From a virus: a DNA stretch of 5,102 bases. Below are positions 1 through 5,102 of this stretch, piece by piece; within the stretch, counting starts at the first letter, position 1, and each line of letters opens with the position of its first letter. The notes under the pieces were generated by a model that made no database searches, was not told the DNA's origin, and saw nothing but the letters and a program-made list of their open reading frames with translations. A program made the position numbers and the translations under genes. The stretch covers positions 1 through 5,102 of the IMG/VR virus record IMGVR_UViG_3300045988_010309. One strand, given 5' to 3'.

Positions 1-55
1 ATATCTGGTATTAATGCTCTTCCGTTCCGTTGTGTTTATCTTATTTGGAACGAAT
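1..55. repeat. Terminal redundancy, copy 1. Identical to 5048..5102, marking the overlap of a circular genome with a 5047-nt unit.
   Basis: By direct comparison, atatctggtattaatgctcttccgttccgttgtgtttatcttatttggaacgaat occurs at both 1..55 and 5048..5102. The offset is 5047 nt. The repeat lies inside one continuous reading frame. Confidence 0.97.
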
Positions 56-1314
56 GGTTTAGAGATGAAAATCTTCAAAAATCCGTAAAAATTCAAAAAG
101 GTGATACTAATGAGGTTTTTGACGGCTCGCGTGTATCTGAACAGCCTGAATGGCTCCAAGGAATTCCTGAAAGTTATCTTCCTTGTCCACCTCGTGGTAA
201 GCGCCATGATTACTTTACTTCTTCTTTACCTTGGACTCAGAAAGGCCCTGGCGTTTCTATAGGTCTTGCTGGTACTGCCTCTATAGTTGACCCGACACCT
301 GGTACTGGTTATCTTCTCCATAGTAACGATAGACAGCTCGCCGCTGTTTCATCTTATGGCGGTGATTCCTCTTCTTCAGGCGGTCGTAGAGTTCAATCTG
401 GTAATGATTCTATTAAGTTTAACCGTTATTATTCAAGTTCTGACTATAGTACCGTAGGCGGTTTTGCCGGCAGTACCAATGCAGAGGTAACTATGTCTGC
501 TCAAAAAGCCTCTACTTACCTTGGCAATGATTCTTATGTTGATTTGGACACTTCAAGCATCTTTACGATCAACAGTCTTCGCACCGCTTTCCAAATGCAG
601 AAGTTTTATGAACGCCTTGCTCGTGGCGGTAGCCGGTACACAGAAGTTTTACGCTCTTTCTTTGGCGTAGTTTCTCCTGATGCAAGATTGCAACGCCCTG
701 AATTTTTAGGCTCATTTACTAAAATGATGAACATCAATCCTATTGCTCAGACTTCTAGTACCAATGACACAACACCGCAAGGCAATCTTTCTGCTTATGG
801 CGTTACAGGTGCCAAGTTTCATGGTTTCACGAAATCCTTTGTTGAACATGGTTATATAATTGGTTTCTGTTGCGCTCGCGCTGACTTGACTTATCAGCAA
901 GGCATTAATCGTATGTGGTCTAGGTCTACTGTTTACGATTGGTATTGGCCGACTTTTGCTCATTTAGGTGAACAGGCTGTACTTCTTAAGGAAATTTATG
1001 CTACTGGCGATGCTGATCAAGATAATTCTGTATTTGGTTATCAGGAGCGCTATGCCGAATATCGTTATAAACCTTCTGTGATTTGCGGTAAGTTTAGGTC
1101 TAATATTAAAGGCAATCTTGATGTATGGCATTTGTCTCAGTATTTTGAAACTGCCCCTAAACTTAATCCTGAATTTATAGAGGAAGATGTTCCCATTAGA
1201 CGTATTGTTGCTGTACCTAGTGAGCCTCAGTTTTTGATTGATATAGGATTTAAGTATACTACTGTTCGTCCTATGCCTATGTTTGGTACTCCTGGTCTTG
1301 TAGACCACTTCTAA
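1..1314 (+). CDS. VP1: Major capsid protein VP1, 3' part. Together with 4619..5047 it gives a 580-aa protein.
   Basis: Frame 1 is open from base 1 to TAA 1312..1314; I translated 1..492 by hand and found no stops. The tracked ORF 493..1314 is only the part after an internal Met. Family motifs present are NALPFRCVYLIWNEWFRDENLQ, HDYFTSSLPWTQKG and INSLRTAFQMQKFYERLARGGSRYTEVLRSFFGV. Confidence 0.95.
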   Translation: MSGINALPFRCVYLIWNEWFRDENLQKSVKIQKGDTNEVFDGSRVSEQPEWLQGIPESYLPCPPRGKRHDYFTSSLPWTQKGPGVSIGLAGTASIVDPTPGTGYLLHSNDRQLAAVSSYGGDSSSSGGRRVQSGNDSIKFNRYYSSSDYSTVGGFAGSTNAEVTMSAQKASTYLGNDSYVDLDTSSIFTINSLRTAFQMQKFYERLARGGSRYTEVLRSFFGVVSPDARLQRPEFLGSFTKMMNINPIAQTSSTNDTTPQGNLSAYGVTGAKFHGFTKSFVEHGYIIGFCCARADLTYQQGINRMWSRSTVYDWYWPTFAHLGEQAVLLKEIYATGDADQDNSVFGYQERYAEYRYKPSVICGKFRSNIKGNLDVWHLSQYFETAPKLNPEFIEEDVPIRRIVAVPSEPQFLIDIGFKYTTVRPMPMFGTPGLVDHF

Positions 1315-1326
1315 GGAGTTGGTAAT

Positions 1327-2085
1327 ATGTCTTGGTTAAGTGATGTCGCTGGTTCTGTTGCAGGATCTATTTTTGGTTCTGCCGTTCAGGGTCATTATAA
1401 TTCTGCTGCTTCAGCTCAACAAAATGCGTGGAATGTTGAAAATTACAAACATCGTTATCAATGGGCTATGGAAGATATGCGTAATGCTGGCCTTAATCCT
1501 ATTCTTGCTGCTACTAATGGTGTTGGCGGTTCTATTGCAGGTGCATCTGCTGCTAGTATTGGTATGCCTGATATTGCTGGCAATATTAGTTCGGCTCGTG
1601 GTGTTTCTGCTGCCTCCAAACAGGCTAAGGTAGCTGAACATCTTTCTACTAGTCAGATTGAAAAAAATATTGCTGATGCTAAATCTTCTTCTGCTAATGC
1701 AGGTCTTGCTACTGCTAATACTACTAATGCAGACTTGCAAAATAAAATCTTGCAGAATGATGTTGATTTTAAAACTAAAACTTTTGATCAGCGCGTACAG
1801 TTTGAGTTTGAGCGTATGAAAGCTGAAATCGATAATCTCCACAAGCTTGGTCAGATGTATGATGCTAATTCTTTAAATGCTACTGCTTCTGCCTTGCGTG
1901 CTAATTCCGCTGCTGCTTTTGATAATGTTCAAACGGAGCTTGCTGGTTATGAGCGTGATTTTTATAAGTCTCTTGGCGATCTCGGATCTGATGCTAAAGT
2001 TATGGGTCCTGCTATTGGCAAAGGTGTTGCTGGCGTTATTGGCAAAGGCATCGGATTTTTAAGAAAACGTTATTTTGGAAGGTGA
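1327..2085 (+). CDS. VP2: Minor capsid / DNA pilot protein VP2 (functional analogue of phiX174 H), 252 aa
   Basis: ATG 1327 follows AAGGAG 1313..1318, which overlaps the VP1 stop, with an 8-nt spacer. The gene sits immediately after VP1. It has a Gly/Ser/Ala-rich N-terminus and the motif NYKHRYQWAMEDMRNAGLNPILA, which I recognise as typical of gokushovirus VP2. The middle is helical and coiled-coil-like, and the C-terminus is glycine-rich (GPAIGKGVAGVIGKGIGFL). Confidence 0.85.
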   Translation: MSWLSDVAGSVAGSIFGSAVQGHYNSAASAQQNAWNVENYKHRYQWAMEDMRNAGLNPILAATNGVGGSIAGASAASIGMPDIAGNISSARGVSAASKQAKVAEHLSTSQIEKNIADAKSSSANAGLATANTTNADLQNKILQNDVDFKTKTFDQRVQFEFERMKAEIDNLHKLGQMYDANSLNATASALRANSAAAFDNVQTELAGYERDFYKSLGDLGSDAKVMGPAIGKGVAGVIGKGIGFLRKRYFGR

Positions 2086-2090
2086 TTTTT

Positions 2091-2330
2091 ATGTCTAACA
2101 AAACTACCATGATTCTTACTTTTATTGTTTCTGTCGTTGTTCCTTTTATTCAAGAAGTTGTAGATTTGATTGAGGCCTTAAAAGGTCATTCCAGTGCTAA
2201 CTTGGTTACTGCCAAGAAGGTTGCATCTGATTTTCAAACCGATGTTAGTGAGGCTCTTACTCCAGTTTCTTCTAAAAAAGATTCTAGTAAAGGTTCTAGT
2301 CGTTTTTTTGGTCCTTGGAGGGATAAATAA
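2091..2330 (+). CDS. Hypothetical 79-aa protein with an N-terminal hydrophobic helix. It is a candidate membrane or lysis protein.
   Basis: ATG 2091 follows GGAAGG 2077..2082. The tracked GTG 2082 start overlaps the VP2 stop and has no better signal. The sequence is MSNKTT-MILTFIVSVVVPFI-QEVVDLIEAL followed by a hydrophilic Ser/Lys-rich tail. Codons are T-ending like the core genes. The stop TAA 2328..2330 overlaps the next ATG (TAATG), which suggests translational coupling. I recognise no family for this protein. Confidence 0.6.
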   Translation: MSNKTTMILTFIVSVVVPFIQEVVDLIEALKGHSSANLVTAKKVASDFQTDVSEALTPVSSKKDSSKGSSRFFGPWRDK

Positions 2331-2440
2331 TGCGTAGACGTAGGATTAGCAAAAGAGGTTCTCGTCGTCTTTTTCGCCGTACATCCAAACCCAGACGCAG
2401 AAATCTTCGTAGAGTACAGCGAGGCGGATTTAGGATTTGA
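2330..2440 (+). CDS. Small arginine-rich DNA-binding/packaging protein (phiX174 J / gokushovirus ORF8-VP8-like), 36 aa. It is not in the ORF track.
   Basis: ATG 2330 follows GGAGG 2317..2321 with an 8-nt spacer, and the stop is TGA 2438..2440. The translation is MRRRRISKRGSRRLFRRTSKPRRRNLRRVQRGGFRI, with 16 Arg and 2 Lys in 36 residues and no acidic residue. It lies just upstream of VP4. Confidence 0.75.
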   Translation: MRRRRISKRGSRRLFRRTSKPRRRNLRRVQRGGFRI

Positions 2441-2465
2441 CATTTCCGTTTGAATCCGTTATAAT
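2437..2465 (+). promoter_or_regulatory. Consensus sigma70-type promoter: -35 TTGACA (2437..2442), 17-nt spacer, -10 TATAAT (2460..2465)
   Basis: Both hexamers match consensus exactly and the spacing is optimal. The predicted transcription start is near 2472, about 10 nt upstream of the VP4 ATG at 2482. The -35 overlaps the TGA of the Arg-rich ORF. A small 6-bp hairpin (ccgtta 2456..2461 / taacgg 2469..2474) overlaps the -10. Confidence 0.65.
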
Positions 2466-2481
2466 CTGTAACGGTGATGAT

Positions 2482-3393
2482 ATGGTTTGTTTTAATCCTA
2501 TGCTTATGACTAAAGTCGAAGGAGCGTTTACGAAAAATGGTAAACAGCATTTGTCTTTTTATGGTTCACTTGCTAATAACCCTTCTTTTGCTTCCGATAG
2601 CCGTTTTATTCGCGTCCCTTGTGGTCAGTGTCTCGGCTGTCGTTTGGAACGATCTCGTCAATGGGCTGTTAGGTGTGTCCATGAGGCCAGAATTTCTGAA
2701 AACGCTTACTTTCTAACTTGTACTTTTGATAATTATCATTTGCCTGCTGATAGGTCTTTATCTGTGAAATTTCATCAGACTTTCCTTAAGAATCTTCGTA
2801 GAGAGTTTGGCTCAGGTATTAGATTTATTGGTTGCGGCGAATACGGTGAACTACATGGCCGTCCCCATTATCATTATATTTTTTACAATATTGATTTGTC
2901 TGATAAAGTTTTTGCTTTCCGTGCCGATGGCTATAATACCTATACTAGTTCTCGTTTTGGTAAAGTTTGGAAGTACGGTATGCATCTTATCGGTGATTTT
3001 AGCTTTGATGCCGCTGCTTATGTCGCGCGCTACATAGTCAAAAAGCAGACTGGTCCTAATTCTAACGAACATTACAAAGGTCGTACCCCTGAATTTTTAG
3101 TTACTTCTCGTAGGCCTGGCATTGGTGCAGCTTGGATTGAGAAGTATGGTCAAGATGTCTATTCCAATGATTTTGTTGTTATTAACGGCAGGAAGATGAG
3201 GCCTCCTCGCTTTTATGACAAAAAATTTTCTGAAAAGTACCCTGAATGGATTGACTACGTTAAAGAAAATCGTGTTCAAAAAATGCTCTTTCATCTCGAA
3301 AATAACACGTTTGAACGTCTTGTCGACCGTTGTAGGTGTGTTGAAGGAAAATACAAAACATTTCTTGGCAGAAAACTTGACAAACAATTGTGA
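2482..3393 (+). CDS. VP4: Replication initiation protein VP4 (HUH rolling-circle endonuclease, phiX174 A-like), 303 aa
   Basis: The N-terminus MVCFNPML from ATG 2482 fits the usual M-x-C-x-x-P start of gokushovirus VP4. The tracked TTG 2437 start would read through the promoter. The Cys cluster PCGQCLGCRLERSRQW is present. Rep motif 1 is FLTCTF (2710..2727), the HUH motif is HGRPHYHYIF (HYH at 2866..2874), and the double-tyrosine catalytic motif is YVARYIVKK (Tyr codons at 3019 and 3031). The stop is TGA 3391..3393. Confidence 0.93.
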   Translation: MVCFNPMLMTKVEGAFTKNGKQHLSFYGSLANNPSFASDSRFIRVPCGQCLGCRLERSRQWAVRCVHEARISENAYFLTCTFDNYHLPADRSLSVKFHQTFLKNLRREFGSGIRFIGCGEYGELHGRPHYHYIFYNIDLSDKVFAFRADGYNTYTSSRFGKVWKYGMHLIGDFSFDAAAYVARYIVKKQTGPNSNEHYKGRTPEFLVTSRRPGIGAAWIEKYGQDVYSNDFVVINGRKMRPPRFYDKKFSEKYPEWIDYVKENRVQKMLFHLENNTFERLVDRCRCVEGKYKTFLGRKLDKQL

Positions 3394-3666
3394 TTGTGTC
3401 ATACTATAACAGAAGGAGGCGATAATATAGATGAATTAAAATTCTTAAAACGTTGGTGTCAGTTTAATGGTTATATTTTTAGGCCTAATTTTTCAGGTAG
3501 CAAATATTCTTGTTACAAGTTTAAGCCTTTGGAATGTTCTGTAATTCGTATCGACGATATGTATTACGTGTTTTCTAAGTATGAAGCATTGATGTATAAC
3601 CGTGTATTAAAATTATATCGTATGCATAAGGAGAAGTTGTCCGATGAAAATTTACTCAGTTTATGA
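3394..3666 (+). CDS. Hypothetical accessory protein (90 aa from TTG 3394, 79 aa from ATA 3427). The start is uncertain and I recognise no family.
   Basis: A 273-nt frame stays open in the most AT-rich part of the genome. My hand count gives about 29% GC over 3421..3600, against 42-48% in spot-checked lines of VP1, VP2, VP4 and VP3. Third codon positions are T-biased as in the core genes, but Leu is mostly TTA rather than CTT. TTG 3394 directly abuts the VP4 stop (tgaTTG). The 3' end overlaps VP5 by 23 nt. Confidence 0.5.
   Translation: MCHTITEGGDNIDELKFLKRWCQFNGYIFRPNFSGSKYSCYKFKPLECSVIRIDDMYYVFSKYEALMYNRVLKLYRMHKEKLSDENLLSL
3412..3419 (+). promoter_or_regulatory. Strong Shine-Dalgarno site GAAGGAGG with no canonical in-frame start codon downstream
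   Basis: GAAGGAGG lies at 3412..3419. The nearest ATG (3431, 11-nt spacer) encodes only Met-Asn-stop (atg aat taa, 3431..3439). The long ORF frame has ATA at 3427, a 7-nt spacer from the SD. Confidence 0.5.
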
Positions 3667-3922
3667 TAAGAAGGCTGAATCTTTTAGTCCTCCGTATGTT
3701 GCTCATAATGATTTGATTGCTCTTCGTAATTTTGAAGGGAGTGTGAATAACCCTGAGTTTCCTATTTCGAAATATCCTGATGATTTTAGTCTCTATTATC
3801 TTGGCAATATTGGCGATATGGATGGTCGTTATTTCCTTGACGGTGACGAACTTAACACCGTAATGCCAAAACTTATAGGCGAAGCTCGTGATTATGTTGC
3901 AAAAACTCCTGAAAAGGAGTAA
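3644..3922 (+). CDS. VP5: Nonstructural protein VP5 (gokushovirus ORF5 family), 92 aa
   Basis: ATG 3644 follows AAGGAG 3628..3633. The sequence MKIYSVYDKKAESFSPPYVAHNDLIALRNFEGSVNNPEFPISKYPDDFSLYYLGNIGDMDG fits the pattern I recall for VP5: M-x-x-Y-x-V-x-D-x-K-A-x-x-F, then A-x-R-x-F, then YPDDF-x-L-x-x-x-G. Its position downstream of VP4 also fits. Confidence 0.75.
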   Translation: MKIYSVYDKKAESFSPPYVAHNDLIALRNFEGSVNNPEFPISKYPDDFSLYYLGNIGDMDGRYFLDGDELNTVMPKLIGEARDYVAKTPEKE

Positions 3923-3945
3923 GATAAAAAAGAGCGATGCAAATT

Positions 3946-3976
3946 AAGACGTTCTCAAATGAGAACGTCTTTTTTT
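3946..3976 (+). terminator. Rho-independent terminator: 11-bp stem, 4-nt loop, then a T-tract
   Basis: aagacgttctc (3946..3956) pairs perfectly with gagaacgtctt (3961..3971) around the loop aaat. T residues run from 3970 to 3976, the first two within the stem. The element lies 24 nt after the VP5 stop and is preceded by an A-tract. Confidence 0.8.
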
Positions 3977-4026
3977 GCATTGCTACGCCCGCCGCGTTTA
4001 GGCGCGTACGAAAGGAGGTGAAAACT

Positions 4027-4497
4027 TTGAAATTTAAAACTCCCTATGATAATATTGAATCTCATGACCATTGCGGAAAGGTGTTTAATTTGCCCTCACT
4101 TGCCCTACAAGACGAGAAAGAGGAGACAGACATCAATTATATCGTCAACAAGTATTGCGATGGTCAGAGAGGCATTGCTACGCTTGATTTAGGTAATTCT
4201 GATGTTTATCAATATCTGCAGTTCGGCGATGCTACATTGCCTGGCGATTATGAAACTGCTCTTGACCTTGTATCTGGTGTTCGCGAAGAGTTCTATACTT
4301 TGCCTTCAAAATTTCGCGCAGAATTTAACCACGATCCCTTGGAATTTATCCAGCGTTTGAATCAGCCTGAAACTTTGAACTTGCTTCAGGAATACGGTCT
4401 ATATACTTCTAGCGTAGTACAAGGTCCTACTGTAGAAAAACAAAATAATAATGAAAGTAACAATTTAGGAGAAAATGAAGAAAAAAATAAAAACTAG
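4027..4497 (+). CDS. VP3: Internal scaffolding protein VP3, 156 aa, starting at TTG
   Basis: AAGGAGGTG 4012..4020 is near-perfectly complementary to the anti-SD, and TTG 4027 follows the GGAGG core by 8 nt. From there the protein reads (M)KFKTPYDN...LPSLALQDEKEETDINYIVNKY...GDYETALDLVSGVREEFYTLPSKFRAEFNHDPLEFI. This fits the VP3 pattern I recall: PS-x-T-x-Q...E-x-DIN-x-I...DY-x-x-A...F-x-x-LP-x-x-x-R-x-x-F-x-x-DP-x-x-F. The tracked ATG 3937 start would place the terminator hairpin inside the gene. Confidence 0.85.
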   Translation: MKFKTPYDNIESHDHCGKVFNLPSLALQDEKEETDINYIVNKYCDGQRGIATLDLGNSDVYQYLQFGDATLPGDYETALDLVSGVREEFYTLPSKFRAEFNHDPLEFIQRLNQPETLNLLQEYGLYTSSVVQGPTVEKQNNNESNNLGENEEKNKN

Positions 4498-4500
4498 CGG

Positions 4501-4541
4501 CAGTTGTGCCAGTTACCTACTTGATGTAACTGGCACAACTG
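4501..4541 (+). other. Perfect 16-bp inverted repeat with a 9-nt loop in the VP3-VP1 intergenic region. It is a candidate replication origin or structured regulatory element.
   Basis: cagttgtgccagttac (4501..4516) is the exact reverse complement of gtaactggcacaactg (4526..4541). The loop is ctacttgat (4517..4525). The stem can extend by 3 bp (gcg 4497..4499 / cgc 4543..4545) across one G-A mismatch. No T-tract follows on the + strand. Confidence 0.85.
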
Positions 4542-4618
4542 ACGCAAAATTAAATTAAACCTTAATAAATGTTTCTTTAGGCTTATTTTTAAGGTTTACA
4601 CTTTTGAAAGGAGCTAAA

Positions 4619-5102
4619 ATGTCACGCAGAATTCGTGTTAAAGGTCATCGTTTTTCAGACGCTCCTGCTATGTATATGCGTCGAACTAAGTTTGACCGTT
4701 CGCATGTCTATAAGACTACTTTTGATTCAGGTAAACTCATTCCTGTATTTGTTGATGAGGTCTTGCCTGGCGATACTTCTAGGTTGAGCGTTAGATATTT
4801 TTCTAGGCTTGCTACTCCTATCAAGCCTATCATGGATAATATTTATCTTGACTGGTTCTTTTTCTTTGTTCCTAACCGCCTTGTGTGGTCACACTGGCAG
4901 AATTTCTGTTTTGAGCAAGAAGACCCCGACGATTCCACCGATTACGTTTGTCCTACTACTTCTCTTGTTGGCAAGGCAGGCGATACCTTAAATGGTATAG
5001 GTACTCTTTGGGATTATTTTGGACTTCCCACAGGTCTTCCCAATACCATATCTGGTATTAATGCTCTTCCGTTCCGTTGTGTTTATCTTATTTGGAACGA
5101 AT
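4619..5102 (+). CDS. VP1: Major capsid protein VP1 (phiX174 F homologue), 5' part. It runs off the window end and continues at position 1.
   Basis: ATG 4619 follows AAGGAG 4608..4613 with a 5-nt spacer. My hand translation finds no stop up to 5102. The N-terminus MSRRIRVKGHRFSDAPAMYMRRTKFDRSHVYKTTFDSGKLIPVFVDEVLPGDT...RLATPIKPIMDNIYLDWFFFFVPNRLVW fits the conserved Microviridae capsid N-terminal signature. Positions 4619..5047 are 429 nt (143 codons), so 5048 (= position 1) starts a codon. Confidence 0.95.
   Translation, partial: MSRRIRVKGHRFSDAPAMYMRRTKFDRSHVYKTTFDSGKLIPVFVDEVLPGDTSRLSVRYFSRLATPIKPIMDNIYLDWFFFFVPNRLVWSHWQNFCFEQEDPDDSTDYVCPTTSLVGKAGDTLNGIGTLWDYFGLPTGLPNTISGINALPFRCVYLIWNE
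5048..5102. repeat. Terminal redundancy, copy 2. Identical to 1..55.
   Basis: This is the same 55-nt string as 1..55. It most likely comes from assembly or linearisation of a circular genome rather than being a biological direct repeat. Confidence 0.97.

Follow-up and report, generated by a model that had tools for sequence, protein, structure and literature searches.

A hairpin element common to nearly all gokushoviruses presents a phiX174-type nick motif and is a probable viral-strand origin

The replication origin of phiX174 and the Bullavirinae is a 30-nt sequence that is cut by the gene A protein at CAACTTG^ATA, where the nick motif is followed by a spacer of about 16 nt and by a downstream conserved block. 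Another type of origin, in which the nick motif is carried in the loop of a hairpin, is found among replicons with HUH Reps, including geminiviruses, circoviruses and other circular Rep-encoding single-stranded DNA (ssDNA) viruses, which have a nonanucleotide loop, as well as IR-II of pT181 and the nic locus of pMV158. Gokushoviruses are among the most abundant ssDNA phages in gut, marine and soil viromes, and in the open literature searched we found no description of a gokushovirus origin or of the element reported here, an older mention being possible since older papers were out of reach. Here, we analysed a stretch of viral DNA of 5,102 nt (IMG/VR record IMGVR_UViG_3300045988_010309, positions 1 to 5,102, hereafter the window), which contains an intergenic hairpin at 4497..4545 on the + strand that an initial annotation had put forward as a possible origin. 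We find that this hairpin is one copy of a DNA element common to nearly all gokushoviruses, and we consider it probable that it is the viral (+) strand origin, with a phiX-type nick site, G4523/A4524, presented in the hairpin loop.

The hairpin, GCGGCAGTTGTGCCAGTTAC-CTACTTGAT-GTAACTGGCACAACTGACGC, occupies the start of the gap between VP3 and VP1, directly after the VP3 stop codon (TAG, 4495-4497), and this gap measures the 121 nt originally given for it, up to the VP1 start codon at 4619. Folding as ssDNA reproduced exactly the structure that had been claimed, namely a perfect stem of 16 bp (4501-4516/4526-4541), a G4500/A4542 mismatch followed by three further pairs (4497-4499/4543-4545), and a loop of 9 nt (CTACTTGAT, 4517..4525). 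Its folding energy is -23.4 kcal/mol (z = -9.6; 0 of 200 shuffles equal it). No inverted repeat in the genome is longer and no 60-nt window folds more stably, the next structure reaching -20.5 kcal/mol (3926-3985), so that the description of this hairpin as the strongest secondary structure holds. The loop contains ACTTGAT (4519..4525), the predicted Rep cleavage motif, with the predicted scissile bond G4523/A4524 taken from phiX174. The 5' arm (CAGTTGTGCCAGTTAC, 4501..4516) has a sequence that is free in relatives and must only pair with the 3' arm (GTAACTGGCACAACTG, 4526..4541), which fills a spacer of fixed length between the nick motif and a box, TGACGCA (4540..4546), whose T lies 16 nt past the predicted nick. 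The extent of the hairpin was thus correctly described in the initial annotation, which had not singled out this box, a conserved sequence at constant distance on the 3' side of the loop motif and a candidate Rep-binding determinant. With a covariance model built from 30 diverse copies in relatives, the + strand of the hairpin scores 62.5 bits, its mirror match on the - strand only 26.8 bits, and nothing else is found in the window. No Rfam family was matched at its gathering score, the only hit being a miRNA-precursor hairpin with 29.9 bits against a gathering score of 100.

The loop heptamer ACTTGAT is identical to positions 4301-4307 of phiX174, which span the annotated nick, and in both cases it stands on the viral strand, which we take from family biology to be the coding strand. 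The phiX174 core quoted in the initial annotation is accurate: NC_001422 4299-4328 reads CAACTTGATATTAATAACACTATAGACCAC, and since its rep_origin is annotated at A4306, the phiX174 nick is G4305^A4306; the match to this core extends over 8 of 10 positions (CTACTTGATG vs CAACTTGATA). A scan of both strands also bore out that ACTTGAT occurs in the window only at 4519-4525, but this uniqueness carries no weight as evidence, because 0.9 copies are expected by chance and at least one copy is present in 120 of 200 shuffles. Inside VP1, at 1117-1125, there is a second copy of the 9-mer CTTGATGTA (context ATCTTGATGTATGG), with no stem and no TGAC box; this copy is probably due to chance, but on single-stranded DNA it could serve the Rep as a secondary site of cleavage.

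The likeness to phiX174 includes the Rep. VP4 (2482-3393, + strand; PF23343, E = 1.5e-15) is an HUH rolling-circle Rep and the predicted trans-acting partner of the element, and it has the HUH and YxxxY layout of protein A that had been ascribed to it: its HUH motif HYHYIF aligns with HFHAVHF of protein A, and its tyrosine motif YVARYIVKK with YVAKYVNKK, so that both proteins have an HUH motif and a two-tyrosine YVA[R/K]Y motif containing two catalytic tyrosines. In a pairwise BLASTP comparison, the two proteins align over motif 1 and the HUH motif with E = 0.005 (EYGELHGRPHYHYIF vs EYGTANGRLHFHAVHF), and no solved structures related to VP4 were found by sequence. The two origins are also arranged similarly: about 16 nt of spacer separate the nick motif from a conserved block further downstream, and GAC is located 17 nt past the nick in both. 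In contrast, the phiX174 spacer is AT-rich and unstructured, whereas here the 3' hairpin arm takes its place, and the downstream block is TGACACC in gokushoviruses and (A)GACCAC in phiX174.

In order to follow the element in other genomes, the 56-nt hairpin was compared by blastn with 50,697 phage records, of which 106 matched, all of them microviruses, with identities of 78-92% and from gut, marine, honeybee, tunicate and rodent samples. The hairpin is thus conserved within non-coding DNA that otherwise cannot be aligned. Among the 60 matches listed, 54 lie in unannotated DNA and the others under coding sequences or VP misc_features, and none carries an origin or stem-loop annotation at the element. 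A scan of IMG/VR for ACTTGATGTAACTG retrieved about 75 microvirus-sized contigs having this 14-mer in the same context, while in large contigs the 14-mer stands in a different context; these are chance hits, which we used as a control. There is no direct match to the element in complete E. coli genomes.

As selection by the motif itself would be circular, relatives were in addition chosen by VP1 homology alone, which gave 80 loci (47-85% identity), and the element was searched for as a perfect stem of at least 6 bp around CTTG[A/T]T, followed by a TGAC-type box. This strict form is present in 70 of the 80 loci (the element profile matches 68-70), and 77 carry the element when imperfect and variant forms are included, the only negative ones being L156, L162 and the partial L186. 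Relatives without the hairpin, or with a loop that is not conserved, would have spoken against an origin of this kind; instead, nearly all carry it and the loop is conserved. Covariance-model scores on the gene strand are mostly 45-71 bits, falling to about 20 in divergent forms, against 12-37 bits for the mirror on the opposite strand. The element is also present in the cultured gokushoviruses Chp2 (CTAGCGTATAACAG-TCTACTTGAT-CTGTTATACGCTAG-GTGATAGC), SpV4 (TGGGGCATAT-ATTACTTGTTATA-ATATGCCCCA-TTGACGAC) and phiMH2K (AGTTCGGCTAC-GGACCCTACTTGTTGTAA-GTAGCCGAACT), where the stems are entirely different. The carriers, phages and prophages, have hosts as distant as Chlamydia, Spiroplasma, Bdellovibrio, Negativicutes, Enterobacteriaceae, Desulfovibrionaceae and Melainabacteria, and therefore a conserved phage protein fits as the reader of the element better than host-specific factors.

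Comparison of these copies reveals three parts: a loop with (Y)ACTTG[A/T]T, a paired stem of freely varying sequence, and a TGACACC box 16±1 nt past the predicted nick. The loops of relatives measure 8-23 nt, always with CTTG[A/T]T near the 3' side. In 45 unique elements, CTTG and the T two bases past its G are invariant because the search required them, but conservation extends to the flanks on which no such constraint was placed (T/C and then A on the upstream side, G-T-A-A on the downstream side), and CTTG is directly followed by A in 36 elements and by T in 9. When relatives were gathered without imposing this part of the motif, rare variants of it appeared (CTCTTGAT and CTTGTC).

The stems have 7-20 bp and unrelated sequences across relatives, except that GTAAC of the 3' arm is conserved in most lineages, even when the 5' partner is non-complementary. 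In an alignment of 30 sequences, 82% of the stem cells are paired, compared with 27-37% when the partners are slid by 1-3 columns; two-sided changes occur in 9 of the 16 stem pairs, and the covariation score of 0.316 is not reached by any of 500 shuffles, which score 0.115, so that the covarying stem expected of an origin hairpin is indeed present. The same result was obtained when structure was ignored in the search and IMG/VR was scanned only for the linear pattern ACTTGAT-N14-TGACACC. Among the new matches, a perfect stem of at least 6 bp surrounds the motif in 48 of 54 microvirus-sized contigs, including 43 of the 49 that lack the common GTAACTG arm, and in 0 of 12 large contigs; the contigs lacking that arm have unrelated stems such as AGCACTAATAT/ATATTAGTGCT and GGGGGGATTCAT/ATGAATCCCCCC. 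The covariation of the stem is therefore independent of how the sequences were gathered.

The box reads TGACACC(A), and TGACGCA in the clade of the window. Across 92 diverse elements its information content is high, and directly 3' of it conservation breaks off. Among the unique elements, 33 have the T of the box 16 nt past the nick, 11 have it at 17 nt and 2 at 15 nt; this spacing of 16±1 nt is kept despite variable stems and loops, and is therefore as would be imposed by a protein reading two sites on one strand. Pairing of the box in a second hairpin or inverted repeat was considered as a general feature and rejected, since its reverse complement lies within 60 nt in only 11 of the 92 elements. 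In that minority the box pairs with a downstream GGTGTCA, forming a second hairpin (e.g. L002, L023, L025, L026 and L055, and also L065, L092, L097 and L166), and in the clade of the window an upstream GCGTCA pairs with the box, extending the main stem to about 20 bp.

These features resemble those of the HUH stem-loop origins, in which the nick motif also lies in a loop on a covarying stem with a Rep determinant beside it, here a candidate one, and with a defined strand polarity. There are also differences: those origins belong to other HUH Rep families, mostly with one tyrosine, their loop motif is of a different type (e.g. TAATATT^AC), and they have iterated binding sites, whereas here no direct repeats (iterons) were seen and a single 7-nt box stands at a fixed distance. 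Furthermore, many gokushovirus loops, unlike theirs, are long, reaching 23 nt, and carry the motif at the 3' edge. In our view, the element would work like the hairpin-loop rolling-circle origins, using a nick sequence and a Rep family of the phiX type.

The element is always intergenic, and its neighbour genes differ between lineages. The location between VP3 and VP1, as initially reported, applies to the clade of the window and to all 12 prophage or genomic loci mapped, but is not general: most lineages have the element between VP3 and VP4 (52 of 75), and the orders VP5-element-VP4 and, in SpV4, VP4-element-(small basic VP8-like open reading frame (ORF)) are also found. In addition, the module including the box is inverted relative to all five genes in 6 of 172 distinct elements (about 3.5%), which belong to six independent genomes (L070, L109 (=L195), L171, L293, L316 and L325) and are still located in the VP3/VP4 gap. 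Since the neighbours change and the module keeps its own polarity when inverted, the element appears to act as DNA, independently of transcription, and an RNA-level role or a promoter is disfavoured because such a function would not survive inversion.

The suggestion that the hairpin is a 3' stabiliser of the VP3 mRNA, or likewise a transcription terminator, would agree with its high stability and its position directly past the VP3 stop codon. However, it is followed by AAAATTAAATT, with no T-run, and no terminator is called here on the + strand, whereas one is called at 3946-3971; neither an invariant loop nor a box at fixed spacing would be needed, the element follows VP5 or VP4 in other lineages, and RNA from the six genomes with an inverted module would carry the complementary loop. 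With neighbours that change and a module that can be inverted, we regard a function of this kind as highly improbable. The possibility that TGAC(A/G)C is the -35 element of a promoter for the downstream gene, with the hairpin in a regulatory or operator role, deserves mention since TGACA is identical to the last five bases of TTGACA, and since the phiX174 sequence that best matches the 3' part of the element, TTGACACC at 3927-3934 in the H-A intergenic region (L125), lies at about -35 from the annotated transcription start of gene A (3962). Against it, a -10 signal at a spacing of 16-18 nt is not enriched (9 of 92 elements, compared with 2-7 of 92 at control offsets), conservation stops right at the box, and a promoter scan of the window finds none that uses the box. 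A Shine-Dalgarno-like motif begins 7-21 nt past the box in roughly one element in four, so close that there is no room for a promoter. Moreover, the downstream gene varies by lineage, the module of six genomes points away from every gene, and the hosts include phyla whose promoters are not of the sigma-70 type, all of which makes a promoter very unlikely.

A second role raised in the initial annotation was that of a complementary (-) strand origin, at which host RNA polymerase, primase or PriA would enter to prime synthesis on the packaged strand. A stable hairpin on the packaged strand is the typical look of such sites, and the phiX174 n'/PriA site, the G4 complementary-strand origin and ssoA are likewise intergenic, strand-specific and stable hairpins in packaged ssDNA. 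Lineages with short stems and large loops would form the hairpin mainly in ssDNA, and the box has a TGACA core similar to a -35 element; the minus origins of filamentous phages are recognised by RNA polymerase and are -35-like. The loop motif of ssoA is TAGCGT, of which we found only a chance occurrence, in the Chp2 stem. However, these priming sites are host-specific, with no loop conserved across host phyla, no Rep heptamer and no two-part fixed spacing, whereas the gokushovirus loop and box are near-invariant in phages of very distant hosts, the invariant heptamer coincides with the cleavage site of a homologous Rep, and the distance between the two blocks is independent of stem length, which is no known feature of single-strand origins; nor is there a -10-like signal with the box.

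Hairpins of other small microviruses have also been tentatively read as priming sites. In reekeekee- and roodoodooviruses, intergenic hairpins near the Rep gene have a conserved loop and compensatory stem changes, and were tentatively linked to negative-strand priming, the function being left open by the authors (Olo Ndela et al. 2022, PMC9865509). They belong to different clades, with no nick-like motif or downstream box reported. Altogether, the conservation of loop and box across phyla, their spacing and the coincidence with the Rep site weaken the proposal, and we consider a role in complementary-strand priming alone unlikely, although the two roles could coexist in the same element.

Such coexistence bears on the genomes with an inverted module, as the viability of a lone inverted module is easiest to understand if the module also primes the packaged strand. 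Tentatively, and with the balance rather against it, the module alone may set which strand is displaced and packaged, in which case the phages with an inverted module would package the antisense strand and be negative-sense microviruses, so far unknown in the family. If this were true, it would follow from the survival of the inversions that complementary-strand priming is supported by the module as well, and double-strand and single-strand origins would be combined in one hairpin of roughly 50 nt.

The conservation described above shows only that some conserved factor reads loop and box, and this factor might be a phage protein other than the Rep. Candidates are VP5 (a protein-C-like switch factor) and the Arg-rich VP8/J-like protein, as the subfamily also conserves VP5 and the small basic protein, and the element might likewise serve for packaging or procapsid docking. 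In that case the match to the Rep cleavage heptamer would be a coincidence, with a probability of about 6e-5 per register. The phiX174 origin region is sufficient for both replication and packaging, and no separate packaging signal is known in that phage. A role of this type would be most simply explained as one aspect of the origin function. We therefore think it improbable that the element is a signal for another protein.

Integrated copies allowed a further possibility to be addressed, namely that the element is a dif-like attachment site (attP) for XerCD-mediated lysogeny. Enterogokushoviruses integrate at dif in a XerCD-mediated manner (PMC7062461), related prophages exist, and in Phascolarctobacterium prophages the element shares its intergenic region with a dif-like site. 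We found prophages that carry the element in large bacterial contigs of several phyla, among them Phascolarctobacterium faecium DSM 14760 (L205), Intestinirhabdus alba (L210) and metagenome-assembled genomes of Sutterella, Desulfovibrionaceae and Gastranaerophilales (the loci besides the first two being L262, L208, L212, L222, L239, L241 and L242). In all of them the element is internal and occurs once per prophage. In L205 and L262, flanking dif-like repeats (..ATATATTATGTAAA..) are found about 100-150 nt downstream of the element, and L210 contains two different tandem prophages between dif-like sites at 1950 and 10605. The junctions are thus separate dif-like repeats, which contradicts an attachment site; in addition, the element does not resemble dif, strictly lytic phages such as Chp2 also carry it, and its changing neighbours and inverted copies speak against such a site as well, so that an attP role is extremely improbable.

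We return to the viral-strand origin, which we regard as the probable function of the element, and for which we infer binding of VP4 at this site, the exact bond and all enzymatic steps. VP4, as a two-tyrosine HUH Rep, would dock on the box and read box and loop motif on one strand, either in the supercoiled replicative form, from which the inverted repeat would extrude, or in displaced ssDNA, which would fold spontaneously. The stem would hold the nick motif single-stranded. By analogy with phiX174, VP4 would cut between G4523 and A4524 and become joined to the 5' phosphate of A4524, and a host polymerase would extend the 3'-OH of G4523. After one round, the second tyrosine would cut the regenerated hairpin, and the displaced strand would be ligated to a circle for packaging.

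Several observations weigh against this function. The phiX174 origin lies inside gene A and has no hairpin, whereas the element here is intergenic. Some lineages have stems of 7-8 bp with loops of 17-23 nt, for which extrusion of a cruciform from duplex DNA is unfavourable; the stem may therefore act only on single-stranded DNA, which would suit a complementary-strand origin just as well. There is also a similarity of the box to a sigma-70 -35 hexamer, and Chp1, L156 and L162 have no recognisable copy. When a position matrix derived only from gokushoviruses is applied to phiX174, the true origin comes first of 10,772 positions, but this rank is carried by the core heptamer: with the flanks only, the origin ranks 182 of 10,772, and with the 3' part of the matrix only, 141, which places the flank similarity in the top 1.3-1.7% of positions. 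Likewise, of the 21 positions past the first nine, 7 are identical between the gokushovirus consensus and phiX174 (p = 0.29), and 10 between the window and phiX174 (p = 0.026), the latter at positions that are not conserved among gokushoviruses.

What is shared with phiX174 is thus the heptamer, the overall length and GAC 17 nt past the nick. Homology of the entire 30-nt origin, which we had considered, is not established because similarity beyond the heptamer is not significant; it is unsupported beyond the heptamer and the GAC at equal spacing, and the element is not a demonstrated member of the phiX174 origin family.

The window represents a circular gokushovirus genome of 5047 nt, as deduced from the exact repetition of positions 1-55 at 5048-5102 (a terminal repeat of 55 nt); VP1 crosses the junction. 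Its closest public genomes are gokushoviruses of human, pig and dog gut, with 73-80% nucleotide identity over part of the genome. All genes are on the + strand. VP1 runs from its ATG at 4619 through the junction to 1314 and is followed by VP2 (1327-2085), by a small ORF (2082-2330) and by an Arg-rich ORF of 36 codons (2330-2440), which is similar to VP8 or the phiX174 J protein and precedes VP4. An ORF of 90 codons with no Pfam match (3394-3666) lies between VP4 and VP5 (3644-3922, PF20577), and VP3 extends from about 4027 to 4497 (PF09675); together with PF23343 for the Rep, these matches show that VP4, VP5 and VP3 had been named correctly.

In the gap between VP5 and VP3, the hairpin at 3926-3985 is the second most stable of the genome and has nested stems, the inner one (3946-3971) being followed by a T-run and forming a canonical intrinsic terminator amid the gene array. 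A smaller inverted repeat, TAAACCTTAATAA / TTTTTAAGGTTTA (13 nt, 92%), is present at 4556-4598, between the origin-like hairpin and the start of VP1. The corresponding stretch of the gap contains the dif-like site of the phage in related Phascolarctobacterium prophages, but no such site was recognised there in the window.

In many marine and freshwater lineages, G+C-rich mini-hairpins are found directly 5' of the element, right after VP3 (for example GGCCGATAGGCC, CGGCCGATTAGGCCG and GCCGTTCAGGC; L002 at ~4150-4165, L087, L094, L105, L110 and L124), which may be a terminator or a second structural signal. Four contigs of 5.8-9 kb (L036, with 8974 nt, L139, L142 and L191) contain two copies of the element 4-5 kb apart, with different flanks in L036, which suggests concatemeric or chimeric assemblies of two related genomes. 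Among 62 contigs from the VP1-sampled IMG/VR set (L130-L203), 17 end at most 300 nt from the element, where about 8 would be expected; this excess could stem from physical ends at a nick or from the assembly, and it is uninformative regarding a physical nick, because assemblers also break at hairpins.

As a candidate origin with a predicted scissile bond, the element makes the question of the gokushovirus origin directly testable, and it constitutes a new family of short and specific candidate substrates for HUH enzymes. For the annotation of the thousands of metagenomic microvirus genomes, it provides a natural zero point and a marker of strand polarity, and it flags the rare genomes whose packaged strand may be antisense. 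It also suggests how a hairpin, instead of an AT-rich melting region, can present a phiX-type nick site, and this mode of presentation would link the Microviridae mechanistically to the hairpin-loop origins of other replicons with rolling-circle Reps.

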